Source: an uncultured Bacteroides sp.
GTDB taxonomy: Bacteria > Bacteroidota > Bacteroidia > Bacteroidales > Muribaculaceae
Direction: 5' to 3'
NCBI GenBank assembly: GCA_964431795.1
Contig: CAYSLD010000001.1
Span: 1-49,354, forward strand
DNA length: 49,354 nt
In this document: one piece after another, positions 13,397 through 31,602 of the stretch
How positions within the stretch are numbered: position 1 is the stretch's first letter
How the letters are laid out: each line of letters starts with the position of its first letter
Made by a program: the position numbers and the translations under genes
The notes under the pieces: generated by a model
The model's database searches: none
What the model was told of the DNA's origin: nothing
The model's input: the letters and a program-made list of their open reading frames with translations, nothing else

Positions 13397-13425
13397 AAAA
13401 GTCCGGTCAACGCCGGACTTTTTTT
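13397..13425 (+). terminator. rho-independent terminator after the fucosidase
   Basis: AAAAGTCCGG-TCAACG-CCGGACTTTT followed by a T tract. Confidence 0.88.
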
Positions 13426-13458: not shown

Positions 13459-13490
13459 TTTGTTTAATTCAAAGTGATTTTTTAACTTTG
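13459..13490 (+). promoter_or_regulatory. Bacteroidetes promoter of the kinase/FHA operon
   Basis: TTTG (13459-13462), 20-nt spacer, TAACTTTG (13483-13490): consensus match. Confidence 0.75.
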
Positions 13491-13616
13491 CTAACTAGAA
13501 TTTAGGCATACTTACTCACTAAATTTCAACACTTCTTAATGCTCGAATGGTGTCAACAGACACTTTATTTGAGCGAATACCATTAACATAAAAATTCACC
13601 TTAAAATACGAAAACA

Positions 13617-14387
13617 ATGAGATGCAAAAATTGTGGATGGCCAAATAAGCCAAATGTTACACATTGCGTGAAATGTAACTCGCCATTGATTAGTGACAGC
13701 GTCAATGACTTTAACTCATCAGAACCGTCAATTCAGCTCAACAAAACAGTTAGAGAAGGTGACATATTCGGCGGCGCACCGGCAACTAACACTCCACCGC
13801 CCTATTATGGCACAGAACCGCCACGTGCCGAGCAACAGCGGCCTCAACCTCAGCCACAATCACAAACGAGCAACTGCCCGAAGTGTGGCTATCCGCTACG
13901 CCCCGGCAGCGATAAATGTCCGAATTGCAAATTTCAGATAGCAGCACCCACTCAGGAAGAGCCGTCATATCGACGCGAGCGCGAATTGCCCAAAGATGAA
14001 TACGGCGAGCGCCATCGCACGCGCATGTCATCGGGCAACGAACAAGCCAATAACAAGATGCGAGGCACCATCAATCCATATATGATGAACTTGGAGGCTG
14101 AGCCAACATTTGTGTTGCGTCCCATAAAGAAAGTTGGCGAGCGACATGACTTTGACGACCAAGAGTATGAGGGCAAAGAAGTGGTGCTCAGCCGTGACAA
14201 CACCGATCCGGACAACGCATCAATCACCTCACGCCGCCAAGCAACAATCACAAATACAGAGGGACATTGGTATATTGAAGATAATAGTGACCAAAAAACC
14301 ACATTTGTTCAAGCCGCGCAAAAGATTGAGTTGCACGACGGTGACATCATACTTTTAGGCAACAGATTGTTTGAATTTCATAAATAG
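13617..14387 (+). CDS. double zinc-ribbon plus divergent FHA domain protein
   Basis: CKNC...CVKC at the N terminus, CPKC...CPNC internally, Pro/Gln linkers, C-terminal FHA-like region (LSRD...ITSRRQATI...WYIED.S...TTFV...LHDGDIILLG). Confidence 0.82.
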   Translation: MRCKNCGWPNKPNVTHCVKCNSPLISDSVNDFNSSEPSIQLNKTVREGDIFGGAPATNTPPPYYGTEPPRAEQQRPQPQPQSQTSNCPKCGYPLRPGSDKCPNCKFQIAAPTQEEPSYRRERELPKDEYGERHRTRMSSGNEQANNKMRGTINPYMMNLEAEPTFVLRPIKKVGERHDFDDQEYEGKEVVLSRDNTDPDNASITSRRQATITNTEGHWYIEDNSDQKTTFVQAAQKIELHDGDIILLGNRLFEFHK

Positions 14388-14396
14388 CATACTGCG

Positions 14397-15689
14397 ATGG
14401 CTGAGATTGCTCAAAGATGCAGCTTCGCCATTGGCGATGTGATAGACAACCGATACCGAGTGTGTAAAATGCTTGGAGAGGGGTCGTTTGGCAAAGTATA
14501 TGCCGTGAAAGACTCCTCCGGGCAATCGTATGCCGTGAAGTTGCTGAAGTTGTGGGAAGTGCCGCCGGAGATCAGAGATTCGCTTGCCGCACGTTTCGAC
14601 ATGGAATTTGAGACCGGGCGCATCGAAAGCAATTATTTGGTGCACTCACTGTCACACGGTATTGTGATGGGCAACCCATACATAGTTATGGAGTATTGTC
14701 CGAATGGAGATTTGCTTTATTTATCGCAAAACACGTCAGTAGACTATACGAAGGCAGCGACACATATATTATATGGGTTGAAAGCCTTGCATATTTGCGG
14801 TAAGGTGCACCGCGACCTTAAGCCGGAAAATGTGTTGGTCAAGCAGAACGGAAATTTTGCATTGACTGACTTCGGCATTTCAGGCGATAGGACCAAACGT
14901 ATGACAGAGCGAAACATATTGGGTAAGCCCAAACAAATCTTTGGCACGTATGCTTATATGCCACCTGAGCAGCTGCGACCGTTCAAAGATGCAACCGTGC
15001 TGCCCACCACCGACATATTCTCATTTGGAGTGATGATGTTTCAATTGCTCACCGGTGAGCTGCCATTTGGCCCACTCTGCACCGAGAGCGATTTGCCCAC
15101 CTACACCCGCCGAGGCAAAAGCGGAGACTGGGACCGCGAGCTATTGAATGACAATGCATCGCGACGCGAATGGACGTCATTGATTGAAGGCTGTTTAGTG
15201 CCTGACTATCAACAACGTCTGCAGAGCGCCGATGACGTGTTGGCACTGGTGCCACACGGTTACATATACACAGACCAAACAGACGTAGGGCCGCAGAACT
15301 TTCAGACGCGCATAGTCAACGGAGTGCTGCTCCGCGTGATGCAAGGCGAGGAATATGGCCGCGTGTACAAGCTCGACGATATGCTCAGCGGCACGAGAAA
15401 TATATTGAACGTTGGCCGCCGCGACGAGGGCGTGCACAACGACATTTCAATACGTGAGGACAACAGCAGCTACGTATCGCGAAAACATTGCACACTTGAG
15501 CTTGACTATGATATAGGCAGCTGGGTGATACGCGATGGGCAGTGGGATAAGTACGAGTCGCGCGGTTGGCGTAGGTCAACAAACGGCACTTACGTAAACT
15601 CAACAGAGGTTGGCATCGAAGGCTTAGTATTTAAGCCCGGAGATATAATTTCAATCGGTGACACCAAACTCAGAGCAGAAGCATACTAA
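14397..15689 (+). CDS. soluble Hanks-type Ser/Thr kinase with C-terminal FHA domain
   Basis: GEGSFGKV, AVK, HRDLKPEN, DFG, GTYAYMPPE, DIFSFG; FHA: VGRR...VSRKHC...STNGTYVN...PGDIISIG; no TM segment. Confidence 0.93.
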   Translation: MAEIAQRCSFAIGDVIDNRYRVCKMLGEGSFGKVYAVKDSSGQSYAVKLLKLWEVPPEIRDSLAARFDMEFETGRIESNYLVHSLSHGIVMGNPYIVMEYCPNGDLLYLSQNTSVDYTKAATHILYGLKALHICGKVHRDLKPENVLVKQNGNFALTDFGISGDRTKRMTERNILGKPKQIFGTYAYMPPEQLRPFKDATVLPTTDIFSFGVMMFQLLTGELPFGPLCTESDLPTYTRRGKSGDWDRELLNDNASRREWTSLIEGCLVPDYQQRLQSADDVLALVPHGYIYTDQTDVGPQNFQTRIVNGVLLRVMQGEEYGRVYKLDDMLSGTRNILNVGRRDEGVHNDISIREDNSSYVSRKHCTLELDYDIGSWVIRDGQWDKYESRGWRRSTNGTYVNSTEVGIEGLVFKPGDIISIGDTKLRAEAY

Positions 15690-15719
15690 AAACAAACAAC
15701 GTAACACAACAGAAACACA

Positions 15720-17246
15720 ATGTCTGGTCAAACCACAAAACCTTATAAAAAGACGCTATCCGGCTCAATAGGATCCGGAATGGGCTCACTATTTTCGCCG
15801 AGCGGCAAAAAATATTACATACTTGAGCACAAAATATCGAGTAAATATCACAAAGCCGGTGAGACACAAGAAATTATTGTTGACAACATAGAGCTTGGCC
15901 GCGACTCGCATTGTCAAGTTCGTTTTGATGAAAGTTTCAAGACGGTGTCGCGCCGCCATGCAGCCATTGTGCGCGATGGCGAAATGTGGAAGTTAGTGCA
16001 ACTGTCAAAGACTAACACCACATTTTTGAATGGCAAGCCCGTGCACGATGAATGGTATCTGCAAAACGGCGACGAAATTCAATTGGCAGTGAACGGACCT
16101 AAGCTGGGATTTATCACTCCTACTGGCAAAAAATCGACAGTAGGCTCGATTGGTCTCACTCGCCGCCTGAGTCTGTTCAGACAGCAAGCCCTACGCCCCT
16201 ACAAAACCGCAATTGCAACACTCTCATGTGCGCTAATACTTGCAATTGTGGGTCTTGGCACGTGGAACTATATGCAAGGCTCAGAATATGATAAATTGAT
16301 TGCTGAAGCTCAATCAAATCTCAATTCACTAAAGGACAAGAACAGTAAACTCGAAAAGCTTATTGCTGAGGCAGCTGTTGAGCAAAACAAATTAGACTCA
16401 CTATTGAAAGAAAAACAAAAGCCGATATACAAGACGGTTTACGTTAATGGAGGTGGTGGCACCGGAGGCGGCATTAGCGCTTCTACAGAGAAACTGAGAG
16501 CATACGAAGATGATATTTATTATTTAATAGGTATTGTAGTGGCCGTATCTGATGGAGAAGTAGTTCCGCTCAAAAATAAGAATGGAAGTTACTACGCATG
16601 GACCGGCACAGGATATCTAATTTCAGACGGACGATTTATCACAGCCAAACACTGCGTGGAAGGTTGGAAGTTCTCGTCGAATGCAGAAATCGGACAAGAT
16701 ATATTAGACCTCGACGAATTATCAAGCCTTTTATTTTTTGCAGGACTTGCCAACGCAAAAGGAGTTACACTACACACAATAATATCTGCTAAATCTCCGT
16801 CAAAAGAGTTCACGTTACGTTCAGACCAATTTGTGATGGACCATTCAGATGAAAAATCGGTGACGTTCGCCGATGATTATACCCGAAAAATTGCATCATT
16901 GACAAGCGGAGCTGATTGGGCTTACGTAAAGACCGGACAAACCGGATCAATTCCGGCAGATGCATCGTTGTCAGCAAATCTTCCGGCCGGAGCACGATTG
17001 GAAGTGCTTGGTTATCCGATGGGCGACAAAGCAGCTCAGGGGTCGTGTTTGTATGGTTCGTGCCAAACTTCAGAGAGAGGCCTACACAATGGCTTGATTA
17101 TGATTTCTGCAAGGAATTTTGAGCAAGGCAACTCAGGCGGCCCGGTATTTTATTTAGATAAAGACACATATAAAGCTGTTGGCATAGTGTCAATGGGCGA
17201 AGGAGACACTCGAGGCGGACTTATTCCATTATCAAATTTAAGATAA
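15720..17246 (+). CDS. FHA - transmembrane - coiled coil - trypsin-like (S1) serine protease
   Basis: FHA (LGRD...VSRRHA...NTTFLNG...LQNGDEIQL), TM (AIATLSCALILAIVGLGTW), heptad region, protease motifs GTGYLI, TAKHC (His), DWAYV (Asp), GNSGGP (Ser). Confidence 0.88.
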   Translation: MSGQTTKPYKKTLSGSIGSGMGSLFSPSGKKYYILEHKISSKYHKAGETQEIIVDNIELGRDSHCQVRFDESFKTVSRRHAAIVRDGEMWKLVQLSKTNTTFLNGKPVHDEWYLQNGDEIQLAVNGPKLGFITPTGKKSTVGSIGLTRRLSLFRQQALRPYKTAIATLSCALILAIVGLGTWNYMQGSEYDKLIAEAQSNLNSLKDKNSKLEKLIAEAAVEQNKLDSLLKEKQKPIYKTVYVNGGGGTGGGISASTEKLRAYEDDIYYLIGIVVAVSDGEVVPLKNKNGSYYAWTGTGYLISDGRFITAKHCVEGWKFSSNAEIGQDILDLDELSSLLFFAGLANAKGVTLHTIISAKSPSKEFTLRSDQFVMDHSDEKSVTFADDYTRKIASLTSGADWAYVKTGQTGSIPADASLSANLPAGARLEVLGYPMGDKAAQGSCLYGSCQTSERGLHNGLIMISARNFEQGNSGGPVFYLDKDTYKAVGIVSMGEGDTRGGLIPLSNLR

Positions 17247-17251
17247 CTATC

Positions 17252-18175
17252 ATGAGACATTTAAGAACAACAATTATATTAATTCTTGCATGTTTATTCA
17301 CACCTGCGACTTATGCGCAAGCGACAAGCAATAAGACTATAAATGCTAAAGATTTGGATAGCTACTTCAACAATGTAGAGGGTAGTCCAACATATATAAC
17401 AACTGCAATCAAGTCGGGGTTGTTTGTGTCGCGCCAAAGTTTTCAGATATACGATGAAGCTACCGGAGATATTTTCGGACGAAACGGCAAGGAAGAATTT
17501 GGTGTGCAATATTCGCTTGGCATCAAAGTGCCTAACGGATTTGTGCTGAGCGACAAAGCTGTATGTCCGTGGAAATACGACAAAGGATTTTTCAAATATC
17601 GCGATAAATATAATCCGATATCATACAAAGCTTCGTATACCGGGCTCGACAAGGTGGAGTACGATTCGCTATCTTATTCGCTGACAAAGATGGATGAGTT
17701 GGTTGACAGCACATTATACAGATTTGACTCAGACACCTTTCACGGTGATGGCTTTATACTCGACTCATCGACAGGCGATAAGAGTGGATGGGTGGTATGG
17801 ATTACGAGCGCAGATAATGCCGATTTTGAGGCCACGTCAAACATTTCATATTCTGTATTTAAAAAAGCCGTAAAAGTTGAGCGACAGCTACAAACCATTG
17901 ATATAGAAAAGCCGAGCACGGTGCAAAATGTCATTGGCGGTATTTACATTGTGCCATCATTCTATAAAATCGGAGTTATCGAGCTTAGGCTAAGCGGCAT
18001 TTTAGTTCAAAACGGTGAAAAATGGCAACTTATCTTCCCTTTTGTTGATGAAAAAGCACAAAAGCATGAGACGAAAAAAGTTAGTGAAACCGAACAGAAA
18101 CCGGATGTAACAAATAACGACGATAAGTCAGAGTTGACACCGATAAATAAAAGCAAAAAGAAAACAAAAAGATAA
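17252..18175 (+). CDS. secreted hypothetical protein, possible inactive trypsin-fold homologue
   Basis: Signal peptide ending ATYA-Q; segments GIKVPNGFVLSDKAVCPWKY and NVIGGIY resemble the His and Ser motifs of the upstream protease but lack those residues; Lys-rich tail. Confidence 0.6.
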   Translation: MRHLRTTIILILACLFTPATYAQATSNKTINAKDLDSYFNNVEGSPTYITTAIKSGLFVSRQSFQIYDEATGDIFGRNGKEEFGVQYSLGIKVPNGFVLSDKAVCPWKYDKGFFKYRDKYNPISYKASYTGLDKVEYDSLSYSLTKMDELVDSTLYRFDSDTFHGDGFILDSSTGDKSGWVVWITSADNADFEATSNISYSVFKKAVKVERQLQTIDIEKPSTVQNVIGGIYIVPSFYKIGVIELRLSGILVQNGEKWQLIFPFVDEKAQKHETKKVSETEQKPDVTNNDDKSELTPINKSKKKTKR

Positions 18176-19732
18176 ATGAGCAGCATAAAATTTAGGATTG
18201 CAGCCAAGACCGATATGGGCCTTGTGCGCACCAATAACGAAGATAATTTCCAAGCAGCAGCCGACTTGAGTTCAGGCCAAATGCGATGGATAAACAATGA
18301 GATATGTTCACTTGGTGATAAAGGAGCACTTCTTGTTGTGGCTGACGGCATGGGTGGCATGAATGCCGGAGAAGTAGCCTCAGAGATAGCAATTGCCACA
18401 GTGCGCGACTGTTTTGCCACAGAGAGATTGACTGCCGAGGTTACGAAATCAAGGTATTCGATTGAGAAATACATGAACGACACTGTCGTGCTGGCAGATG
18501 CGCGCATAAAAGCCGAAGCAGCAAAGCGTCCCGAGACACGCGGCATGGGCACCACAATAGTTATCGGATGGGTGCTCGATGGCAAATTGTATGTATCGTG
18601 GTGTGGAGACAGCCGTGCATACGTGTACAATCCCGCCGCCGGGTTGCACCAAATCACCAAAGACCACTCGTACGTGCAAAGTTTGGTTGACAAGGGCTCT
18701 ATATCGCACGAAGATGCCTTTGACTTTCCCGACAGTAACATCATCACACGCTGCTTGAGCGATGCCTCGACAAAGGCTAAGCCCGAGTCGTTGTTACGCC
18801 CGTATGAGGTTTGTAACAATGATATCATTTTGCTGTGCACAGACGGACTTTGTGGCATGATACGCGATAATGAGATAGAGCAAATTATACGCGCGAATGA
18901 GCACAACATGGATGAGTTGAGCGACCGCTTGATACAAGGGGCTTGCGATGCTGAAGGTTCAGACAACATTACTATCTGCTTGTGCCAAATCATGCAAGGT
19001 GGCAAAGTATGCGACCCCACTGTGTTTGTTGAGTCAGACAAACGTCTACGTGGCAAAAGTGCCAATTTGACAGAGACTGTGATTAAAGATTCAAACGATG
19101 ACGATGACCACAAGAAGTGCAAATTTTGTATAATCGGACTTATTGCTTTGCTTGTGATAGTTATTGGTGGAATTTTGTATTGGTGCTTTAGCAATAGCGG
19201 CAATGATGCCAACAGTGATGACAACAAAGAAAAAGTTGACAGCGTGCGTGAAGAGCAACCTGTTCCGGATGTTGCACCTGACGAAGGACAAGTGACACCT
19301 CCCGAGACAGATATACAGATGCCTAGCGAAGAGCAATTAAAGGCCTTGGAAGAAAAAGCGAAGAAGCAGCATAAAACTGACACCAAAGAGCCTCAAAAAG
19401 ATCAAAAGAAACAAGACAAGAACAAAAACAGTGAGAAAAAAGACGAGCAAAATGCCGACAAAGACGATCTATTCAATACGGGTAAATCCATAAACGCGTT
19501 AGAAGATCTCAAAACTGAAAGCAAATCAACAGAGGCTAAAGCAGAAACCAAAACTACTGATAATCAGTCCAATACAAAACAAAAGACCAAGACGAAAAAT
19601 TATTTAGTAAAAAAAGGCGATTCATATTCCTCAATTGCAGATAGCTTAAAAATAAAAGTAGCTGTATTGCAGAAAGTGAACAATAACAAGCCTCTGAAAG
19701 CAGGAGAAACGATACAAATACCGGTAAAATAG
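18176..19732 (+). CDS. PP2C/PPM Ser/Thr phosphatase - TM - charged linker - LysM domain
   Basis: TDMGLVRTNNED, VADGMGG, MGTT, GDSRAY, TKDHS, LCTDGL, DNIT; TM (FCIIGLIALLVIVIGGILYWC); C-terminal YLVKKGDSYSSIA...LQKVN...LKAGETIQIP is a LysM signature. Confidence 0.9.
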   Translation: MSSIKFRIAAKTDMGLVRTNNEDNFQAAADLSSGQMRWINNEICSLGDKGALLVVADGMGGMNAGEVASEIAIATVRDCFATERLTAEVTKSRYSIEKYMNDTVVLADARIKAEAAKRPETRGMGTTIVIGWVLDGKLYVSWCGDSRAYVYNPAAGLHQITKDHSYVQSLVDKGSISHEDAFDFPDSNIITRCLSDASTKAKPESLLRPYEVCNNDIILLCTDGLCGMIRDNEIEQIIRANEHNMDELSDRLIQGACDAEGSDNITICLCQIMQGGKVCDPTVFVESDKRLRGKSANLTETVIKDSNDDDDHKKCKFCIIGLIALLVIVIGGILYWCFSNSGNDANSDDNKEKVDSVREEQPVPDVAPDEGQVTPPETDIQMPSEEQLKALEEKAKKQHKTDTKEPQKDQKKQDKNKNSEKKDEQNADKDDLFNTGKSINALEDLKTESKSTEAKAETKTTDNQSNTKQKTKTKNYLVKKGDSYSSIADSLKIKVAVLQKVNNNKPLKAGETIQIPVK

Positions 19733-19738
19733 ACAGTT

Positions 19739-20578
19739 ATGAGCAAAACATATATAAGAATAGGACGCGACCCACGGTGTGACTTACATATTGATGAGAG
19801 ATGGGACACCGTGAGCAATCAGCATGCCGAAATAGAGCAGAATGGCAACCAATTATTTTTCACCGACCATAGCACAAACGGCACGGTAATCAACGGCCAA
19901 AAAGTGCACAACATGACAGTTGGCATTTATCAGGGCGACGTGATAAAGTTGGCCAATGTGTTTTTGTTGGAGTGGGACGTTATAAACACGTTTTTCCCGT
20001 ACAACAACAACCGTCCAACAGTTACGCACAACACCCATGGATATGCTTCAGACACCAATGGTGGGCGCAAAACCGTGCAAATGCACGATGCGCCACGTGA
20101 GCAAGATCACGGCCGAAAAACCGAAGCATTTAAGCCGGAGCAACAACGTCAGCAGCCGCAATATCCACCGCAATATCAGCAACGGACAGGCGGCAACCAA
20201 GCCAACGAACCAACAGCTAAGACAGACAGCGGCAAAGAGAACGTTTACTCACAGTCACAAATCGACAAAGAGTTGGGACGCTGGAACTGGGGTGCATTTT
20301 TCTGCACTTGGTTGTGGAGCGTATGCAACGGCTTATATTGGCCGGCCTTTGTGATATTGGTAGCATTGATACCATATATCGGGCAAGTGTGCGCACTTGC
20401 GCTAAGCGTATATCTCGGTTTGAAAGGAACAAGAATGGCATGGAACAAATGCAAAGATAAAGACTTTGATAAGTTCAAACGCAGACAGCGCAATTGGGCC
20501 ATAGCCGGCTTGATAGCCTTTATACTAACCGTTATTTATAACATATACATGCTCAAATACGTACTAAATATATTTTAG
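19739..20578 (+). CDS. FHA domain protein with C-terminal multi-pass membrane domain (WNWGAF type)
   Basis: IGRD...VSNQHA...STNGTVING...GDVIKL FHA, Gln/Pro linker, RWNWGAFFCTWLW followed by about three hydrophobic helices. Confidence 0.82.
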   Translation: MSKTYIRIGRDPRCDLHIDERWDTVSNQHAEIEQNGNQLFFTDHSTNGTVINGQKVHNMTVGIYQGDVIKLANVFLLEWDVINTFFPYNNNRPTVTHNTHGYASDTNGGRKTVQMHDAPREQDHGRKTEAFKPEQQRQQPQYPPQYQQRTGGNQANEPTAKTDSGKENVYSQSQIDKELGRWNWGAFFCTWLWSVCNGLYWPAFVILVALIPYIGQVCALALSVYLGLKGTRMAWNKCKDKDFDKFKRRQRNWAIAGLIAFILTVIYNIYMLKYVLNIF

Positions 20579-20581
20579 AAA

Positions 20582-23500
20582 ATGTCGTTACAAAGAGGTC
20601 AACTTTTTCACAACCGCTATTTATTGGTGAAAGCGCTGGGACAAGGAGCATCTGCAGATGTGTGGATGGCCCAGGACACGCGTGCCAATAATTTGTTGGT
20701 TGCGCTCAAGATATTTGCACAAAATTCGGAATTTGACTCGTACGGGCTTCAGAACTTTGAGCGTGAATTTACCACGGTCTACAACATGAAGCAGTCAAAT
20801 TTATTGCCGCCAACGGGCTATGACATCTGCGATGGCAGGCCATATTTGGTGATGCAATATTGCGAGAATGGATCGTGCCACGGCTTGGCAGGGCGCATGG
20901 ACGAAGATGATATTATCAAGTTCATGCACGATGTGTCGGCCGGACTTGAGTATCTACATGACCACAACATCATACACCAAGATATCAAGCCCGACAATAT
21001 CTTGCTCGATGACAATTGCAACTACATGGTCACCGACTTTGGTATCAGCGTGAGCACCGACGGCAGTTTTGGCAGTTCAAACGGTATGTCGGGCGGCACA
21101 CGAGCCTATATGGGGCCGGAGCGTTTTGAAGGTGTGGTGAGCAGTGCATCAGATATGTGGTCGTTAGGAGCAACAGCGGTTGAATTGTTGATCGGAGAGC
21201 CGCCATACGGCGAACATGGCGGACTGTTGCAAGCAGAGGGCGAGCCCCTACCCGCTTTGCCAAAGTTGCAGCCGGAGGTTGCAGCGATGATACTCAGCTG
21301 TTTGGAACGCGACCCGGAAAAGCGCATAAAAGCTAACGAGATACGTCAGAAAATAGAGCTTTATTGGGAAACCGGCAAATGGACGGCCCCATCGTCGATA
21401 AACTTGATAGCAAAAGTAGCCACTATAGCGGCAGCGATAGTGATGTGCTTGGGCATATATGCATGGGACTACACCCGCACAAAGGTGTACTACTATAAAG
21501 ATTATGCCGAATATTGGGGTGTGCCCAAAGGCATTGGGCGCCTAAGTTCAAACGAGATGTCGCACCGCGAAATGAGCTACAAGTTTGAGTACTGCAAGCA
21601 TAAGCTCAGACGTTTGTCGTTGGTAAACTCTGCCGGCAAGGTCATTAGCCACAAAGACACCGAACTGGCAAATTGCCGCTATTCAGATGTGAGTTATTAC
21701 TACACTGATAACGGCCAATTGGACTATGCCACTATATCAGACTGCAACGGATGCGTGCTCTACAAGATGGACTATGACGAAAATCTGAAGACAGTGACAT
21801 TCCGACAAAATGACGAATATGGCACCGAGCTAAATTTAGAGGCGAACACAAATGTGCTCTACAAGAACAATCAATCGGTATTTGAAGAGAGAAGTCGTAT
21901 ATCACGCTATTTGCTGACATACGATGATGATGGATTGGTGATAGAGCGCAAATATGTTGGTTTGCAAAATGTGCCCGCTTGCGATAAGGACAAGATTTAC
22001 GGTTCACGATACAAATATGACGACAAAGGCCGCAAGATTGAAGAAGACTTTATCGGCTCAGACGGTGAAATCAAAGGCAACGGAGACGGCTTGGCCATTC
22101 GCTTATACACATACGATGACAACAACGATTGGACATCAGTAACATATTTGACTGCAGAGCGCAAAGGCTCGCACGACGGCAACAACTGTTCGGTAGTGAA
22201 ATTAGAATATGACAAGTATGGCAACCGCATATTTGAGCGTTACTACACGGCAGATGAAGAGCCGTCAATTCGCACAGACATAAACGTGTCAGGACTAAAA
22301 TATGAGTTTGATGACAAAGGAAATCAAATTGTGCGCACATGCTTGGGCACAGACGGAAGTGTATCATTCAGCAATGCCGGATTTGCCATACAGCGATTTA
22401 AATATGACGACAACGGATTTATCACAGAGATAAGTTGCTTTGATGATAATAACAAGCCAACAATGTGCAATTTCCAAGGCGAGTGTTACTGCACAACGAA
22501 GCTAAAAATCGATGATAAAGATTTGCCGCTCGAAATAAGCTATTACGACGAAAATGGCCGACTTTTTGAGCAAACAAATGGTGCATCGCGTGTTAAAAAC
22601 GCCTTTAACGAACAAGGCTTTATTGTAAGACAGCAGTACTTCAATTCAGAAAACAAACCGGTGCTCATTGACGGCTTCTACAATATAGTAAAGTTTGAAT
22701 ACGACGAGTTTAACCGACGTACTTTTGAAGCTTATTATGACAAGGATGAGAATGCCGCCACGATAGATGGTACTATCTCGAAATATGCTTATGAATATAA
22801 CCGACAAGGAGCAATAACCAAAGTGTCATTTTTAGACACCAAGGGTAATCTTGTGTTGACATCTGATTTGACAGCCGGCTACACAATTGCATACGATGAA
22901 CTGGGCAACGAAAAATATCAAGAATACTTTGATATCTCTCAAAATCCGACAACGAGCAAATATGGATTTTCAAAGATAGAGTATTTTTACGACGACAAGG
23001 CAAACAATCTTATTGGCGTAAAAAAATATACTTCCAACGGCAATGTGGTGAGTGATGACCATTACAAATACGATGCTCGCGGCAACATGACAGAAGTATA
23101 CGCATTGACCAACGGCAAACTCATAAGCGGTGATTATGTCACCCACTGTGAATATGACGTTAACAATCATATAACTCAAAAGTGGTTTACAGACCTCAGC
23201 GGGAACAAAGTAAACGTAAACGATGGGACATACTCTGTCATGAAATGCGAATTTGACAACATGGGAAACTGCACCGAACGCACCTTCTGGAAGGCAAACG
23301 GAGCCCCGGGCACCGATGAGCAGAAAACCCATAGGCGCGTGCAAGAATTTGATGCGATGAATCGCACGATAGGCGAACGCAATTATGGCACAGATGGCAA
23401 ACCCGTGAGCGGAACCGGTGTTAATCCCGAAGGTAAGGTGAAATATGACCAATGGGGCAACATAATAGAATTGTCGTGCTACGACGGATATGGCAGGCCA

Positions 23501-23923
23501 CATCTTTCATCTGACGGAGTATTTATTGAAAAGTCAGAATACAATAGACGCGGGCAACTTATCAAGCGAGAATTCCTAGGCTTGGACAGACAGCCGACAC
23601 GCAGTAAATCGGCAGAATGTGCAAAGCTGGAATATCAATACGATAAGCACGGCAACAATACCGAGATAAAGTATTACGACACAACAAAATGCATACGTAT
23701 AGAAAAGCTCTCATACAACGACCGAAATAGATTGACCGAATATCGTGTTTGCGATGGCTCGGGCAAGTTATCGGACAAGGAATATGGGATTTCACGTATG
23801 ACCATTGACTACGATGCCGGTGGAGTCACCCCTACAGTCAAGAAGTACTACACTCAAAACGGCACACTCTTAGGTAAACAAACATGGAACTCCAAAAACA
23901 AAGATTGGAACCCGATAAATTGA
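20582..23923 (+). CDS. membrane Ser/Thr kinase with large extracytoplasmic YD/RHS-like repeat domain
   Basis: LGQGASADV, ALK, HQDIKPDN, DFG, GTRAYMGPE, DMWSLG; TM near aa 277-295; about 800 aa of recurring Y.YD..GN....Y....G repeats. Confidence 0.9.
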   Translation: MSLQRGQLFHNRYLLVKALGQGASADVWMAQDTRANNLLVALKIFAQNSEFDSYGLQNFEREFTTVYNMKQSNLLPPTGYDICDGRPYLVMQYCENGSCHGLAGRMDEDDIIKFMHDVSAGLEYLHDHNIIHQDIKPDNILLDDNCNYMVTDFGISVSTDGSFGSSNGMSGGTRAYMGPERFEGVVSSASDMWSLGATAVELLIGEPPYGEHGGLLQAEGEPLPALPKLQPEVAAMILSCLERDPEKRIKANEIRQKIELYWETGKWTAPSSINLIAKVATIAAAIVMCLGIYAWDYTRTKVYYYKDYAEYWGVPKGIGRLSSNEMSHREMSYKFEYCKHKLRRLSLVNSAGKVISHKDTELANCRYSDVSYYYTDNGQLDYATISDCNGCVLYKMDYDENLKTVTFRQNDEYGTELNLEANTNVLYKNNQSVFEERSRISRYLLTYDDDGLVIERKYVGLQNVPACDKDKIYGSRYKYDDKGRKIEEDFIGSDGEIKGNGDGLAIRLYTYDDNNDWTSVTYLTAERKGSHDGNNCSVVKLEYDKYGNRIFERYYTADEEPSIRTDINVSGLKYEFDDKGNQIVRTCLGTDGSVSFSNAGFAIQRFKYDDNGFITEISCFDDNNKPTMCNFQGECYCTTKLKIDDKDLPLEISYYDENGRLFEQTNGASRVKNAFNEQGFIVRQQYFNSENKPVLIDGFYNIVKFEYDEFNRRTFEAYYDKDENAATIDGTISKYAYEYNRQGAITKVSFLDTKGNLVLTSDLTAGYTIAYDELGNEKYQEYFDISQNPTTSKYGFSKIEYFYDDKANNLIGVKKYTSNGNVVSDDHYKYDARGNMTEVYALTNGKLISGDYVTHCEYDVNNHITQKWFTDLSGNKVNVNDGTYSVMKCEFDNMGNCTERTFWKANGAPGTDEQKTHRRVQEFDAMNRTIGERNYGTDGKPVSGTGVNPEGKVKYDQWGNIIELSCYDGYGRPHLSSDGVFIEKSEYNRRGQLIKREFLGLDRQPTRSKSAECAKLEYQYDKHGNNTEIKYYDTTKCIRIEKLSYNDRNRLTEYRVCDGSGKLSDKEYGISRMTIDYDAGGVTPTVKKYYTQNGTLLGKQTWNSKNKDWNPIN

Positions 23924-23942
23924 ACAAATAAAACATACAATA

Positions 23943-25313
23943 ATGGAAGAAAATAAGTTATTTAACGACCGATATTTTCTGGAGAGGTTGCTTGGCAGAG
24001 GCAACTTTTCGGAGGTTTGGTTGGCAAAAGATACCAAAACCGACATCAAAGTAGCATTGAAAATCTATGCTCCGGCAACAGGATTGGACGATGCGGGGCT
24101 CAATGTGTTTGCTCGTGAGTTTTCGCTGGTAGTAAATGCCAATCATAAGAATTTGCTAAAGCCGCTGTATTACGACTCGTGCGACAGAAAGCCGTTTTTG
24201 GTGCTACCGTTCTGCGAACAAGGAAGCATCATGAAGTTAATCGGTAAATTCACCGAGGCCGATGCTTGGCGATTGCTGCGCGATGTGGCAAGCGGATTGG
24301 CATGGTTGCACGGCATGAAACCGCCGGTGATACACCAAGATATCAAGCCCGACAATGTGATGATTGGTGAGAACGGTGACTTTATGATTACCGACTTTGG
24401 TGTGAGCACCCACGTCAAGTCGACACTACGCAAAAGTCTGAGCGCTGCATTTAGTTCGGCCGGAACAATAGCGTATATGGCGCCCGAACGTTTCAGCAAA
24501 GACAACACGCCAATCATGGCAAACGACATATACTCACTCGGCGCAACCGTCTATGAAATGCTGAGCGGAGACACACCTTTTGGCGACGATGGCGGCTTGA
24601 TACAAATGAAAGGTGCCGAAGTGCCGGAGCTGAAAGGCGAGTATTCCGACCAACTAAAGGCTGTGATAAAAAAGTGTCTGAAAACAAACCCATGGGAAAG
24701 GCCCACAGCCGAGCAGCTTGAGAAGTATGCCGAAGATGGATTGCAAAACAAAAAGATTGCCTTTGTTGACGAAAAAACATTTTGGCAGAAATATAAATTA
24801 GCTATCATCGGTGCCGCTGTTGCGCTTGTAGTGATAGTTGGAGTAGCTATCAGTTTGATCAACAAGCACAACGAAGCCATTGAGCAAGAGCGCATTGCAG
24901 CAGCTATAGCCGCAGAAAACGACTCGATTAAACAAGTGGCGGCAAGGTGTGAATTGATTGGCGACAGTTTGAGCCGAGTTGGCGATGCTCACGATGAAGG
25001 TTTTGAGGCAGCATATATCGAGTCGCTGCAAACCTACAACGAAGCCGATGAAGCAGCCGGTAAGCTCACCAACGATGCTAAGTTTAAGGATGCAGCATTG
25101 GTAAAGAAAAAAATATCAGATGTTGAAACAAAACTATATAGTGCATACAAATCATTTAAAGAAAAAGCAGCACTATTTGCCGACGATGCCGAGATAGCAG
25201 CCGAGTTTAGCAACCGAGCCACAAAGATTGGCGAAGTGATAGACATCAAAAAATTTGAGAAGGACAAAGCTAAAGCCGACAAAGCTGCAGCAAAAACCGA
25301 CTCAATACAATAA
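23943..25313 (+). CDS. membrane Ser/Thr kinase with helical extracytoplasmic domain
   Basis: GRGNFSEV, ALK, HQDIKPDN, DFG, GTIAYMAPE, DIYSLG; TM (LAIIGAAVALVVIVGVAISLI); Ala/Lys/Glu-rich helical C terminus. Confidence 0.92.
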   Translation: MEENKLFNDRYFLERLLGRGNFSEVWLAKDTKTDIKVALKIYAPATGLDDAGLNVFAREFSLVVNANHKNLLKPLYYDSCDRKPFLVLPFCEQGSIMKLIGKFTEADAWRLLRDVASGLAWLHGMKPPVIHQDIKPDNVMIGENGDFMITDFGVSTHVKSTLRKSLSAAFSSAGTIAYMAPERFSKDNTPIMANDIYSLGATVYEMLSGDTPFGDDGGLIQMKGAEVPELKGEYSDQLKAVIKKCLKTNPWERPTAEQLEKYAEDGLQNKKIAFVDEKTFWQKYKLAIIGAAVALVVIVGVAISLINKHNEAIEQERIAAAIAAENDSIKQVAARCELIGDSLSRVGDAHDEGFEAAYIESLQTYNEADEAAGKLTNDAKFKDAALVKKKISDVETKLYSAYKSFKEKAALFADDAEIAAEFSNRATKIGEVIDIKKFEKDKAKADKAAAKTDSIQ

Positions 25314-25345
25314 CACGAAAAAGAACAAACAAAACATAATGTATT

Positions 25346-25969
25346 ATGAAAGTGTCTAGACTTATTTTAACTATGTTGTTTTGTGCAATTACGTTGACAA
25401 TAAGTGCACAAACATCATGTGACAAGCTATTTGCAAGCGGAGTGAAGCTGCAACAAACAATGACTGTGGCATCACAAAACAAAGCTATCACTTATTTTGA
25501 AAAGGCAAAGGTTTGTTATGATTCACAATCGAAAAAAGACTTATGTGACCAACAAATCAAAGCCTGTCGCAACATTATTGCGCAATTGTCAAAAAAGACA
25601 AAAACTGTGACAACAACAAGAAACACCGACGAAACATCGACCAATGAGCAAACCGTGCAAGAACCGGTAAGGACAAAGCAAGAAGTACGCAATGTTCAGC
25701 TGTCGATTGACTGCGCCTATTTGAAATTTAAAGGCAAAGGCGGTGAGTTTAAGAAAGCGAAAGTGACGTGCAACTACACTGATTGGGAAATTGTAGAAAA
25801 GCCTGATTGGGTGAACTGCACACGCAATGACAACGGTGAGATAGTTGTTGAGGCCGTAAAAAATCCGACAAAAGAAGAACGCTCAGGAGTGATAAAAATC
25901 ACTTGCGGAGATAAATCGGTCACACTGACCGTCATACAAGAAAAGTATAAGAAATTTGTTGTGGTATAA
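25346..25969 (+). CDS. secreted protein with TPR-like helical N terminus and C-terminal BACON domain
   Basis: Signal peptide; helical Cys-containing segment (KAITYFEKAK); DWEIVEKPDWV...VEAVKNPTKEERSGVIKITCGDKSVTLTVIQ fits the BACON W..W..N..R..Q pattern. Confidence 0.75.
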   Translation: MKVSRLILTMLFCAITLTISAQTSCDKLFASGVKLQQTMTVASQNKAITYFEKAKVCYDSQSKKDLCDQQIKACRNIIAQLSKKTKTVTTTRNTDETSTNEQTVQEPVRTKQEVRNVQLSIDCAYLKFKGKGGEFKKAKVTCNYTDWEIVEKPDWVNCTRNDNGEIVVEAVKNPTKEERSGVIKITCGDKSVTLTVIQEKYKKFVVV

Positions 25970-25995
25970 AAACAACTACTAGGTAAATTTGTGTG

Positions 25996-26026
25996 AGAGA
26001 GCCGCTCCGAGGTGGGGCGGCTCTCT
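25996..26026. terminator. hairpin terminator between the convergent kinase operon and rubrerythrin
   Basis: AGAGAGCCGCTCC-GAGGT-GGGGCGGCTCTCT stem (one G-U pair), T-rich sequence downstream. Confidence 0.8.
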
Positions 26027-26031
26027 TCTGT

Positions 26032-28383: not shown

Positions 28384-31300
28384 CTATTTAATTATAACCT
28401 TTTTGGCATTGATGATGTAAATGCCGGGAGCGAGGGTTTTGATATCATCGGCAGTTGCATTAGCTTTAATGCGGATGCCTTGCAGATTGTAAACATCTGT
28501 AGGCAAGCTCTTATCATAAGAAATGTTGCTAACGTCAGTGTACTTCTGACTGACCTCAACAGTTGTAGAGGCTGTAGCTGCGCCAAGATCTAAAGCCGTA
28601 GCCGTAATAGTAACGGTGCCTTCAGCTAATCCGGTGACAACGCCATTCGAGTCAACAGTAGCTACACTTTCGTCGGAAGAAGTCCATTTATATTTGAGCA
28701 CATTTGCATTTTCGGGCTCATATTTCGGTGTAAGCTTAATAGTTTCGTAACCGAGCTGGTATTTACTTTTTTCGAAAGACAACGCACTTATGCGCACAAC
28801 ATCTTTTACCGGGCGCACGCTGTATCCGGTAGAAGTACTTAAGGTATGAGCTTTTATTGCAAACGAAGAAGAAGTTATAACAAATAGTCTGGCATTATGG
28901 TATTGTGCTAAACTATAATTATAATATCTGGTAGTAGACAACCAAGTTGTGGCAGCAGGGCCATACGTTGATGTTGCAATTCCTGGCAAGAAGGCAACAT
29001 CGTCAGTTTTGCCTGACGATAGCAAAGCTCCGCAAGTGTTGTAGTAGCAAACGTAATCGCTGCCAAGATTATTTAATAAGTCGTCAACTAAGTCATTATA
29101 CGACCACATGCGGCATCCGCTGCCCATTGCGGCAGTGACAGCATCGTATTCGGTTCCGGCAATATCGACACTTGCAGTGGCAGTAGGAACATACGGAGAA
29201 ACATCTTCACCCGGAGTAGTTGCGCCCCAACAATAAATATCGCCGGCCACATTGTCGGCACTAGCGCCAAGGTTGCGTGAATATATCAAGATATCACCGC
29301 CAAGGTAAGCCCACGAGCCTTCTTCGCTATCAATAGCGTTTTCATCCACAATAACCTTCAGCTCGGCATACACCTTAGAAGCATCATTAGCCATAGCTTT
29401 AACAATCGTCGTACCGGGAGCTACGCCTACAATATTTCCATTGTCATTGACCGTAGCCACAGCATCGTCATCGCTCACCCAAGAGTAAGTGTTATCATCA
29501 GCATCTTTCGACTCAACAGTGACTGAGAGAGATGTTATTTCTTGGTCGGGATGGAGGTAAGCAGTTTGAATTTCATTTTTCGCTGTAGCGTCTTTGATTG
29601 TAATAGAGCTTACGAGTAGCGGAGCGACAATCACGTCAAACGACTCGCTGATATTAGAGCCGTCAATTGTTTTTACCGTGATTGTAGCAAAGCCATAACT
29701 TTTTGCAGTGAGCGAGCCACGATGAGTTGAGACGCCATTACTAGTCTGTGTTATACCTTGCACCTCAACCACATCTTCATTGTCGGAACTCCAAGCGAAT
29801 TCGTGGATAGTAGCCTCAGCCGGAGTGATGGTCGGAGTGACAGACTTTGTGGTTGTTGATTTTAAGTTGAGTGTGAGGTTATCGTAGTCAGACACATCAA
29901 TTCCGGTTGCCGGGATAAGTTGCACCGGGCGTATTGCGGCATAGTCATTCCAGTCAATATTTGCGATAGCTGCGTCTTTGGCAGTATCGAAAGTTACACC
30001 GCCATTGGCACGAAGGCTACCTCCATTATTGTAATACATTGCCACATTTGATGTGCAATATCTGCCGCCGTCAAAGGTATCGCCTTCGACCAGCGGAGCT
30101 TGGCCGGGCAAGAAGATAGAGTTGCCGTTAGGGCCTGTTACTTTATAGCCGCTGATGCCTTCAACCTCACTGCGCTCCCAAGTGCATTTTGTGTAAAGTT
30201 CATACATTAAGTTTGTTGTGGGCGTGCACCAATAGTCAGAGTCGAACGATTTTGACACAACATCTTCGTCGGTCATCATTATATTTTTAGTCTCGCGCAC
30301 CACATTTGCTTGATATGTGCTACCGCAATATTGCCACTCGTGAGCTGCGCCATAGTTTGCTGTAGCCCATTTTGCAGAGAGGCCTAGGTCAACAGCTTCG
30401 GGTTGGGGCAAACCAGCCTCCTTGTCTTTGACTGCACGCAAAGCATAAACCTTTTGATCTAAAGTGTTCTTACCGATTTTGAATGACACGGAGCCATCGG
30501 CATTTATTGTTGGGTGGAATGCCTGGTTGGTGCTCTTTGCCAAATTAAATGAGCTGAGTTTATACAAGAAGAAGTCAGAAGAAGCATAATATTGGTCAAA
30601 ACCGCCATCATCATTTGCTTTTGTGGCAAATTGTATTGATGCCCCATCAACGAGTTTGCTGGTGGCTGTGATAATGCCGGTTGTTGCATCGTATGTGAAT
30701 GTGCAATTGCTAATCAGTTCCTTATATTGGTCAACTGTCGGCAAGTGCCAGCCTTCGCCGTATTTGCTTGAAATCAAATCGCCTTTGGCCCCTGTGATAT
30801 TGTAATTGCCTTCAGCACTATAACCGCTTACATCCATAGTGGCATCGGTTGCTGAGCCATAGTAATATAGCTCCGGCTCATCGGTTGGCAGCTCTGCAAG
30901 ATAGTTTGTTGCTGCCCAATCAACCGACAGACCAAGGTCAACGGTTTCGGGAATAGGAATTACTTCGGGTTCCGGTTCTAAGGCTACATCGCGTGCATAT
31001 TTCACCGGACGCATTAAATACATCTTAATTTTGTAGCTTGCGGCAAAGGTTGTATAAATCTTTATTGCATTATTGACGTAAGCGAAACTTACATACCTTA
31101 TTGTCATAGTTGAGTCACCCGTCTTGTTAACGATTGACGTTGCATACGAATTACTTTTAGCAAATAGCACTTCATTTCCGTTAATCTTACTTTTGGCAAC
31201 AATTAAGTCTAACGTTGCATCGTACGATAAATCGCAATTGTCAATTAACTCTTGAAATTGAGCCAACGTTGGCAAGTGCCAACCGTCAACGCAATTTTGT

Positions 31301-31554
31301 GCAACCATATCGTATTGCGTTCCGGTAATGTCAATATCGTTAGCGATTTCAAAGTTTGAAAGGTCAGTCTGTAAGGTTCCATCAGCCGAGAGAGGATAAT
31401 ATTTCGTCGGCGTTGTTGTCGGGTCGGTGTCCGGGTAGTTGCATTTAGCCCAATACACAGTCAGACCGAGGTCAACGTACTCCGGATCAACAAGATCGGC
31501 CTTTGCCCATGCGCAACACATGAGCAAAACAAAGCAAATTAAAAATTTTTTCAT
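28384..31554 (-). CDS. large T9SS-secreted surface protein with four VDLGL...W..PT...RPV modules and three Ig-like (Big_2) domains
   Basis: Signal peptide; VDLGL-x-x-x-WA-x-x-N three times plus a degenerate fourth; WSS-D-x-x-V(A/V)-x-V Ig repeats; C-terminal VYNLQGIRI...LAPGIYIINAKKVIIK typical of a T9SS CTD. Confidence 0.8.
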   Translation of the reverse strand: MKKFLICFVLLMCCAWAKADLVDPEYVDLGLTVYWAKCNYPDTDPTTTPTKYYPLSADGTLQTDLSNFEIANDIDITGTQYDMVAQNCVDGWHLPTLAQFQELIDNCDLSYDATLDLIVAKSKINGNEVLFAKSNSYATSIVNKTGDSTMTIRYVSFAYVNNAIKIYTTFAASYKIKMYLMRPVKYARDVALEPEPEVIPIPETVDLGLSVDWAATNYLAELPTDEPELYYYGSATDATMDVSGYSAEGNYNITGAKGDLISSKYGEGWHLPTVDQYKELISNCTFTYDATTGIITATSKLVDGASIQFATKANDDGGFDQYYASSDFFLYKLSSFNLAKSTNQAFHPTINADGSVSFKIGKNTLDQKVYALRAVKDKEAGLPQPEAVDLGLSAKWATANYGAAHEWQYCGSTYQANVVRETKNIMMTDEDVVSKSFDSDYWCTPTTNLMYELYTKCTWERSEVEGISGYKVTGPNGNSIFLPGQAPLVEGDTFDGGRYCTSNVAMYYNNGGSLRANGGVTFDTAKDAAIANIDWNDYAAIRPVQLIPATGIDVSDYDNLTLNLKSTTTKSVTPTITPAEATIHEFAWSSDNEDVVEVQGITQTSNGVSTHRGSLTAKSYGFATITVKTIDGSNISESFDVIVAPLLVSSITIKDATAKNEIQTAYLHPDQEITSLSVTVESKDADDNTYSWVSDDDAVATVNDNGNIVGVAPGTTIVKAMANDASKVYAELKVIVDENAIDSEEGSWAYLGGDILIYSRNLGASADNVAGDIYCWGATTPGEDVSPYVPTATASVDIAGTEYDAVTAAMGSGCRMWSYNDLVDDLLNNLGSDYVCYYNTCGALLSSGKTDDVAFLPGIATSTYGPAATTWLSTTRYYNYSLAQYHNARLFVITSSSFAIKAHTLSTSTGYSVRPVKDVVRISALSFEKSKYQLGYETIKLTPKYEPENANVLKYKWTSSDESVATVDSNGVVTGLAEGTVTITATALDLGAATASTTVEVSQKYTDVSNISYDKSLPTDVYNLQGIRIKANATADDIKTLAPGIYIINAKKVIIK

Positions 31555-31602
31555 GTTTTGATTGGTTTTAAGTGATATATAATGGTTTATTACTTTTAAT
31601 TA

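Follow-up and report, generated by a model that had tools for sequence, protein, structure and literature searches.

A conserved Bacteroidota operon of Ser/Thr kinases, FHA proteins, a phosphatase and a protease: a candidate trans-envelope phosphothreonine switch

Gene content and setting of the operon

The window analysed here is the whole of a 49,354-nt stretch of DNA from an uncultured Bacteroides sp. of the family Muribaculaceae (contig CAYSLD010000001.1, assembly GCA_964431795.1), and the subject is a run of nine open reading frames (ORFs), g1 to g9, at positions 13617-25969. All nine are co-oriented on the + strand and are separated, from g1 to g9, by gaps of 9, 30, 5, 0, 6, 3, 19 and 32 nt. 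A Bacteroidota-type promoter precedes them on the same strand at 13459-13490 (TTTG at 13459-13462, a 20-nt spacer and TAACTTTG at 13483-13490), which matches the -33/-7 consensus of the phylum. An intrinsic terminator-like hairpin of 15 pairs follows on the + strand at 25995-26027, and the gene upstream of the operon has its own terminator at 13397-13422. The 5' leader between promoter and g1 contains a small hairpin (13549-13564). By Pfam, the operon is flanked by a fucosidase and a rubrerythrin. A preliminary description made from the DNA letters had reported nine co-oriented genes with gaps of 0-32 nt, a single consensus promoter, a closing hairpin and unrelated neighbours on both sides, all of which were recovered. 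Its domain list was also reproduced, with Pfam giving three kinases, one PP2C, four FHA domains, a trypsin domain, a weak RHS/YD match, LysM and BACON. The genome of origin (2.1 Mb, 82% complete) had four FHA matches, all inside the operon, and four Pkinase matches, three of them inside it.

In what follows, composition, conservation, catalytic residues, domain exchange, motif enrichment, the division of kinases into classes and the promoter cassettes were read from sequences, and folds and topology were predicted. The product of g1 (13617-14387) has two zinc ribbons, a disordered linker with conserved Thr motifs and a C-terminal FHA domain with degenerate binding residues, and is likely a scaffold and kinase substrate. 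The g2 product (14397-15689) is a soluble RD-type (Arg-Asp) Ser/Thr kinase with a C-terminal FHA domain, likely an amplifier kinase. The g3 product (15720-17246) consists of an FHA domain (residues 58-122), a transmembrane (TM) segment (163-181), a coiled coil and a trypsin/HtrA-like protease without PDZ. It is followed by g4 (17252-18175), with an N-terminal signal-like segment, a predicted trypsin fold, an acidic linker, an ELTPI motif and a Lys-rich end. The g5 product (18176-19732) is a PP2C phosphatase with a TM segment (317-335), a disordered outer tail and LysM; the phosphatase is Stp1/IreP-like, scoring 212 bits against a cut-off of 230. The g6 product (19739-20578) joins an FHA domain to a linker rich in Thr motifs and C-terminal membrane helices.

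Two non-RD receptor kinases with an HQD motif complete the set of kinases, and the catalytic motifs checked were kept by all three (g2, g7 and g8). The g7 product (20582-23923) has a TM segment (275-293) and a YD-like repeat ectodomain of about 820 aa, in which repeats are spaced by 32 residues, the Pfam RHS/YD match is weak and, by sequence, none of the solved structures matched. An assignment of g7 as an Rhs polymorphic toxin was rejected: the DPxG cleavage motif is missing, the repeats reach the end of the protein and a kinase and TM segment occupy the N-terminal side. At eight of the loci described below (L015, L016, L019, L020, L022, L023, L027 and L038) the g7 relatives end in a further domain of about 100 residues, which is missing in the window, L011 and L017. 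The g8 product (23943-25313) has a TM segment (288-306) and a short ectodomain without Pfam match. The g9 product (25346-25969) has a signal-like segment, an N-terminal domain without Pfam match and BACON. It is likely the periplasmic partner of g8, a pairing suggested by their adjacency and by the fusion of a g9 relative to an outer-membrane beta-barrel in three loci. Counts of basic residues at the TM segment (three before it versus 0-1) fit an N-in topology for g3, g5 and g8; for g7 the count around the TM segment was ambiguous.

A five-gene core with variable distal genes

Thirty-seven loci were compared, comprising 20 found via g3 in the genome collection, 10 of 12 family carriers and all 7 class carriers; they were chosen through g3 or g4, include near-identical members (L014, L024, L025) and are in some cases cut by contig ends. 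g3 was present in all 37, g2 and g5 in 36, g1 and a receptor-type kinase in 35 each, and g4 in 34. The five-gene core (zinc ribbon-FHA protein, kinase-FHA, FHA-TM-protease, g4 and PP2C) was complete in 34/37 loci, so the operon is no chance cluster, and the core plus a receptor kinase was found in 33. The preliminary description had proposed checking homologous neighbourhoods for conserved order, patchy distribution and swappable ectodomains, and a conserved, patchy cluster with exchangeable outer domains was supported. The order g1-g2-g3-g4-g5 is kept in gut lineages but is rearranged to g3-g4-g5-g1-g2 in seven genomes that belong to three distant families; in one of these genomes a kinase separates g3 from g4. 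The full nine-gene set is one variant (g6 in 14/37 loci, g9 in 10/37). The distal genes are variable, with ankyrin, WG, MORN or YD repeats alternating in the receptor ectodomains and YbjN-like, Sel1, BACON and outer-membrane barrel proteins among the other products. Several variants have an outer-membrane barrel, a lipoprotein or an Ig-like protein as the last product.

Carriage was patchy, at 16/120 genomes of the genus (g2), 12/200 of the family (g3) and 7/400 of the class (g4 profile), with 0/400 in a draw from the phylum using the g3 profile. Muribaculaceae, Prevotellaceae and Bacteroidaceae are intermixed in the g2 tree, as transfer would give, and flanking genes differ between loci. A search for empty sites was weak, with only four fucosidase relatives, one of them followed by another gene. 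Cultured gut isolates with the operon family include Segatella copri HF1825, Phocaeicola sartorii DSM 21941 and Palleniella intestinalis PINT. In the comparison of L014 with L024/L025, a locus from a genome labelled Treponema is nearly the same as the Segatella copri locus, through either misbinning or recent transfer.

The protease domain of g3 is exchanged between lineages

The g3 product qualifies as a trypsin-like (PA clan) protease, with the fold and the His-Asp-Ser triad both present. Triad residues H311, D399 and S472 were invariant in 31/31 aligned sequences; the g3 of L026, which lies outside that alignment, lacks the catalytic Asp. The predicted model contained the FHA domain, one long helix and the protease, with no PDZ. 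Database searches returned 1984 matches to g3, and 42 candidate stretches of viral contigs yielded no g3 relative.

The protease domain (16476-17243, + strand) has a third-position GC content (GC3) of 0.36, compared with 0.46 in the FHA part. The window was compared with eight other loci of the nine-gene type plus L021. Its g2, FHA part of g3, PP2C and kinases were 72-92% identical to those of the nine loci (one g8 was uncalled); its protease was only 26-30% identical in 8/9 of them, and 50-58% identical to the protease of a different operon type. In trees of g2 and of the FHA part of g3 the nine loci were grouped, and the protease tree placed the window and L011 with L012-L014 (Shimodaira-Hasegawa-like approximate likelihood ratio test, SH-aLRT, 98). 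The approximately unbiased (AU) test on the protease rejected a nine-locus clade (p-AU 6.5e-70), on a quick tree and for a group proposed from the identity comparison before the tree. The same pattern was seen in closely related pairs, with FHA parts 99% identical and proteases 34% (L043/L045, g4 85%) or 33% (L011/L017). Database proteins with at least 85% identity to the first 165 residues of g3 numbered 37. In 30 of them the protease was below 40% identity, and together with the window these proteins formed five groups at 50% identity. Residues just ahead of the catalytic Ser also differed between groups. Judged by these identities and trees, lineages swap the protease domain while the FHA anchor stays fixed, which suggests variable, possibly foreign, substrates.

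Three side observations concern the same gene. A lone FHA-protease gene (L039:7329-8714) occupies a site that holds the complete operon in the relatives L038 and L040. The stretch 16432-18095 (protease domain and g4) was without cover in two RNA runs and represented by pieces in two DNA runs; a swapped allele or low depth could account for this, and it was not counted as evidence. Clusters at 90% identity had 3 members for g3 and 2 for g4, compared with 11 for g1, 9 for g5 and 11 for g7, and strains of the species may carry other alleles.

A predicted pseudoprotease beside the protease

g4 matched no Pfam family, and its trypsin fold was seen only through the predicted structure (predicted local distance difference test, pLDDT, 79; predicted TM-score, pTM, 0.73). 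Foldseek matched the model to HtrA, 3C and other trypsin-fold chains with probability 1.0 and E ~1e-4, at low TM-scores of 0.3-0.4. Structure comparison gave a best Z of 10.1 (root mean square deviation 3.2, 165 residues aligned) and 42 chains with Z of at least 8; all 50 of the matches listed had the trypsin fold. Measured against the PA clan, the model has the two-barrel fold and lacks the catalytic triad. The g4 family comprises 720 clusters at 50% identity, and its best 150 relatives of the 720 were scored. GxSGGP occurred in 0/150, and the His position was mostly K, R, E or Q, with His in two. In a weak profile alignment of g4 with the g3 protease, the catalytic His of g3 stood opposite a Lys. 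From these data g4 is predicted to be a secreted pseudoprotease without catalytic His and Ser.

In the model, the ELTPI motif of g4 (18131-18145, + strand) forms a strand of good confidence with disorder on either side, so docking of the LTP motif on the g4 fold may be possible. LTP[IVL] was found at the end of 101 of the 150 relatives scored (0.4 in shuffles), and a looser LTP form in 16/28 PP2C tails. Across outer segments LTP[IVL] occurred 13 times, compared with 0.3 in shuffles, and in cytoplasmic segments not at all.

Kinase classes and threonine motifs

The receptor-type kinases carry HQD in 45/49 cases and HRD in 1/49, and the g2 kinases HRD in 35/37; by these motifs the receptor kinases are non-RD, in contrast to the RD-type FHA kinase. 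In plants and animals, kinases of the non-RD class have been connected with innate immune signalling (PMC8463890), and any link to immunity here is by analogy.

Short [KR]-T-hydrophobic sites recur in the linkers of g1, g6, g3 and g5. In 173 cytoplasmic linker segments [KR]T[VILM] occurred 62 times, compared with 12.9 +/- 3.5 in shuffles (maximum 24), and in 85 outer segments 14 times, compared with 16.3 expected from shuffles. In g1, T44 and T151 were invariant in 16/16 sequences. The reading of phosphothreonine (pThr) by FHA domains is established (PMC13584744), and the enriched motifs are presumably pThr sites read by the FHA domains of the operon.

Putative promoter inversion in relatives, and expression

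At four loci (L011, L019, L021 and L028) two sites lie after a tyrosine integrase; their arms are palindromic and their cores are reverse complements. These pairs are exact inverted repeats of 15-20 bp flanking a -7 promoter element that faces away from the operon, an anatomy which appears to be that of an invertible promoter in its off state. Four other loci start with a NusG/UpxY gene, so that invertible-promoter or UpxY control was indicated in 8/37. The promoter of the window is fixed, with no inverted sites or integrase nearby, and the integrase of the invertible cassettes was not found in its genome at 82% completeness. When metagenomes were scanned for the inverted site, 119 loci matched, of which 30 have the integrase ahead of varied cargo, which indicates that the integrase cassette is generic; none had g1. 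No flip was seen in that scan at an operon-bearing locus, and the pattern favours one orientation. Such cassettes control Bacteroidales surface loci (PMC11892184, PMC12118408), and the word 'kinase' does not appear in the available parts of either paper.

The same cassette was found elsewhere. At L062:664-3064 it precedes UpxY and then genes for an FHA protein and for a kinase from another family, which make up a second phospho-signalling operon that appears to be phase-controlled. It also lies ahead of UpxY and a ClpB-like ATPase, possibly TssH of a type VI secretion system (T6SS), at L098:105-3218, and before UpxY-led loci resembling polysaccharide operons at L101, L110 and L114. A different, conserved and probably structured leader precedes the operon at L012:7142, L013:7689, L014:748, L016:516, L024:6926 and L026:7825; it had no Rfam match in four scanned loci and is not in the genome of the window. 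Rfam gave no match in the window plus four related loci.

In three gut metatranscriptomes, contigs of close strains covered 26, 26 and 6 of the 30 bins of the compared stretch, and single RNA contigs spanned the g1/g2 and g8/g9 junctions; such contigs report presence in an RNA library and not one transcript or a transcript level. Beyond the operon, 2.4 kb downstream on the - strand (28384-32931), lie a large Big_2/Fib_succ-like repeat protein and a protein with four BACON domains.

Comparison with known systems

The T6SS threonine phosphorylation pathway (TagQRST-PpkA-Fha1-PppA), which responds to envelope damage, resembles the operon in combining a membrane Ser/Thr kinase with an outer sensor, a periplasmic partner, an FHA reader and a PP2C eraser (PMC13584744), and its triad of kinase, FHA and PP2C is present here. 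Unlike that pathway, the operon is not linked to a T6SS and encodes kinases of two classes, three in all; its presumed output is a membrane protease paired with a dead partner, and its phosphatase is membrane-anchored and bears LysM. By the count of TssC (PF17541), found in 3/39 carrier genomes and not in the 82% complete genome of origin, the operon does not require a T6SS; in the family draw it occurred in 7/200 genomes (2/12 carriers and 5/188 non-carriers). PF05943 (VipB), which is blind to the TssC of Bacteroidota and was replaced by PF17541, had no match among 38 carriers and 201 family genomes. No TagH/Fha1 orthologue was recognised (TIGR03354, best 51.7 bits against a cut-off of 120.25), nor any T6SS gene among the scanned neighbouring proteins, in line with the earlier statement that the window contains no T6SS genes.

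Receptor kinases, a membrane PP2C and FHA proteins also stand together in the actinobacterial fhaA-fhaB-pstP-rodA-pbpA-pknA-pknB cluster and in Stk1/Stp1 of Firmicutes. The likeness lies in this one-operon grouping, with partial NCBIfam matches. The operon differs in its non-RD receptors and in being accessory and patchy, not essential core. By Pfam it has no PASTA domain (NF033483 gave 124-135 bits against 450), and neither rodA nor pbpA was among the nine genes or the window neighbours, which upholds the claim that cell-division genes are missing.

The KKP module (PfkA-PfkB-PfpC), for which an antiphage role was shown, is a PP2C-kinase-kinase triplet with a kinase fused to a cold-shock domain (PMC11341870). 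A kinase-FHA fusion, a second kinase and a PP2C are shared with it; unlike KKP, the operon is membrane-spanning, has another order and size, was not found in viral contigs and has a cold-shock domain on none of its three kinases. NTP-dependent ternary conflict systems (MoxR-vWA, DO-GTPase-GAP1) have a MoxR AAA+ or double GTPase core (PMC7159879), and no NTPase is among the nine genes. PADLOC gave no full-length match to all components of any antiphage system, and the operon proteins matched only generic kinase and trypsin domains. HtrA/DegS periplasmic proteases share the fold and membrane anchor of g3 and the fold of g4; unlike them, g3 has no PDZ, carries a cytoplasmic FHA domain and has a catalytic domain exchanged among lineages. 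Receptor-kinase immunity of plants and animals (EFR and kin) offers an analogy in its non-RD receptors, variable ectodomains and RD kinase partner (PMC8463890).

In their available parts, PMC11341870, PMC7159879 and PMC3482391 deal with other systems. Full-text literature searches, covering main texts outside subscription journals, found no description of the operon. It is a real, conserved Bacteroidota system, undescribed in the literature searched, and the earlier statement that it is not a characterised Bacteroidales system stands, with no match to a described system. It would work like kinase-FHA-PP2C envelope circuits yet lacks the defining markers of each. New are the swappable protease, the putative dead-protease partner and the apparently phase-variable versions.

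A candidate trans-envelope switch and its alternatives

At about even confidence, the operon is read as a self-contained trans-envelope phosphothreonine switch with periplasmic proteolysis as its output, and we infer that proteolysis is the output and not an internal processing step. The self-contained circuit proposed earlier gains from the recurrent core, the intact triad and the variable ectodomains. Within the model we infer the sensing, the order of phosphorylation, the activation of the protease by clustering, what g4 does and what triggers the system. g7 and g8, the latter probably with g9, would sense an envelope change via their variable ectodomains and phosphorylate the [KR]-T-hydrophobic sites in the linkers. 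g2 would then be recruited through its FHA domain and amplify the signal. FHA-pThr contacts may cluster g3 and, given the predicted topology, activate its PDZ-less protease from inside out. The dead protease g4 could be an inhibitor, cofactor or adaptor. A docking peptide may be provided by its LTP motif, which is common to many PP2C tails. PP2C g5 would reset the switch.

Several observations weigh against this model. No substrate is evident for the g3 protease. The sequence link between g4 and g3 is weak (hhalign E 0.016 over 70 columns for the protease alone), and the g4 profile did not match the whole g3 profile (E 0.06). The two are no strict cognate pair, as in L043/L045, and the rank correlation with g4 is 0.52 for the protease compared with 0.65 for the FHA part. 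g4 is absent from 3/37 loci, and in L039 g3 stands alone. The tail of the window's own PP2C is without the LTP motif, and the motif counts come from related sequences, so their independence is overstated. Strict pairing of g4 with the protease in the style of toxin and immunity protein is unsupported, as g4 does not track the protease.

The switch may serve as an envelope immune circuit, a possibility that we hold tentatively. Attackers in the periplasm, be they phage, toxin or host peptide, would be recognised by non-RD receptor kinases, the RD kinase and FHA scaffolds would amplify, and the exchangeable, pseudoprotease-controlled protease would destroy a foreign protein or trigger a cascade, while phase variation would distribute the cost over the cells of a population. 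A role in conflict is compatible with the exchange of the protease, the non-RD receptors, the patchy carriage and the control by invertible promoters or UpxY. Among 86 flanking proteins from 31 loci, one matched a defence model near full length (SoFic) and five others at the level of domains or housekeeping functions, so a location in defence islands is unsupported. No toxic effector is present.

It is unlikely that the protease instead acts upstream or in feedback, shedding or maturing receptor ectodomains, with phosphorylated cytoplasmic host proteins as the output in growth or envelope control (cf. PknB/Stk1). The operon has three kinases for one protease and holds nearly all FHA and Hanks-kinase genes of its genome, RNA contigs suggest ordinary gut expression, and the LysM domain of the phosphatase suggests a tie to the cell wall. 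One fixed substrate within the operon is, however, a poor fit to a protease exchanged while its neighbours stay alike; the operon is also missing from most relatives, and no PASTA or cell-division genes are attached.

That the operon governs how a phase-variable surface structure (an adhesin or outer-membrane complex) encoded at its end is assembled or released is quite unlikely. In favour are the invertible-promoter or UpxY control at 8/37 loci, typical of Bacteroidales surface loci (PMC11892184, PMC12118408), and the barrels, lipoproteins or Ig-like proteins at the end of several variants. Against it, neither an outer-membrane barrel nor a clear surface protein is found in the window variant, and the distal genes are unrelated among variants.

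A MotA/ExbB-like motor gene and its partner, which has an N-terminal Asp-bearing helix, a coiled coil and a vWA or other domain, lie inside 5/37 loci of two distant groups, and in 200 family genomes the motor family was found only within the operon. The pair shares its anatomy with the TolQ-like pentamer and trans-pore-helix vWA partner motors predicted in PMC12204202, in the main text of which 'kinase' and 'trypsin' occur 0 times. The circuit might gate such an ion-driven motor, the window being a reduced form minus the output. This is very unlikely: 32/37 loci are without the motor, it was not found elsewhere in those genomes with this query, and motor-less loci retain the catalytic residues and high conservation of the cytoplasmic domains. 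The window lacks the pair, which was not found in its genome with these queries. At L028 (110-1810, 6954-7729) the operon follows a relaxase/mobilisation gene and an integrase, and the MotA-like gene is in two pieces.

Action in trans as a T6SS threonine-phosphorylation pathway is barely credible. In its favour, the writer-reader-eraser logic is that of PpkA/Fha1/PppA (PMC13584744) and TssC occurs in 2/12 family carriers versus 5/188 non-carriers. Against it, TssC was found in 3/39 carriers only and not in the 82% complete genome of origin, no T6SS gene was recognised in the scanned neighbours, and TagH model scores stayed within 52 bits, the cut-off being 120.

The trans-envelope switch, if correct, would represent new wiring: the protease would be controlled from the cytoplasm through its FHA anchor, with a dead protease as partner and a catalytic domain open to exchange. 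To our knowledge, Ser/Thr phospho-signalling in Bacteroidota is almost unstudied, and the periplasmic proteases we know of are switched on from outside via PDZ domains. On the immune reading, g3 would be the first inside-out, phosphorylation-activated periplasmic protease, and the operon a prokaryotic parallel to receptor-kinase immunity. As the family is large and present in cultured gut isolates, the predictions for the Thr sites, S472, the LTP motif and promoter inversion are directly testable.

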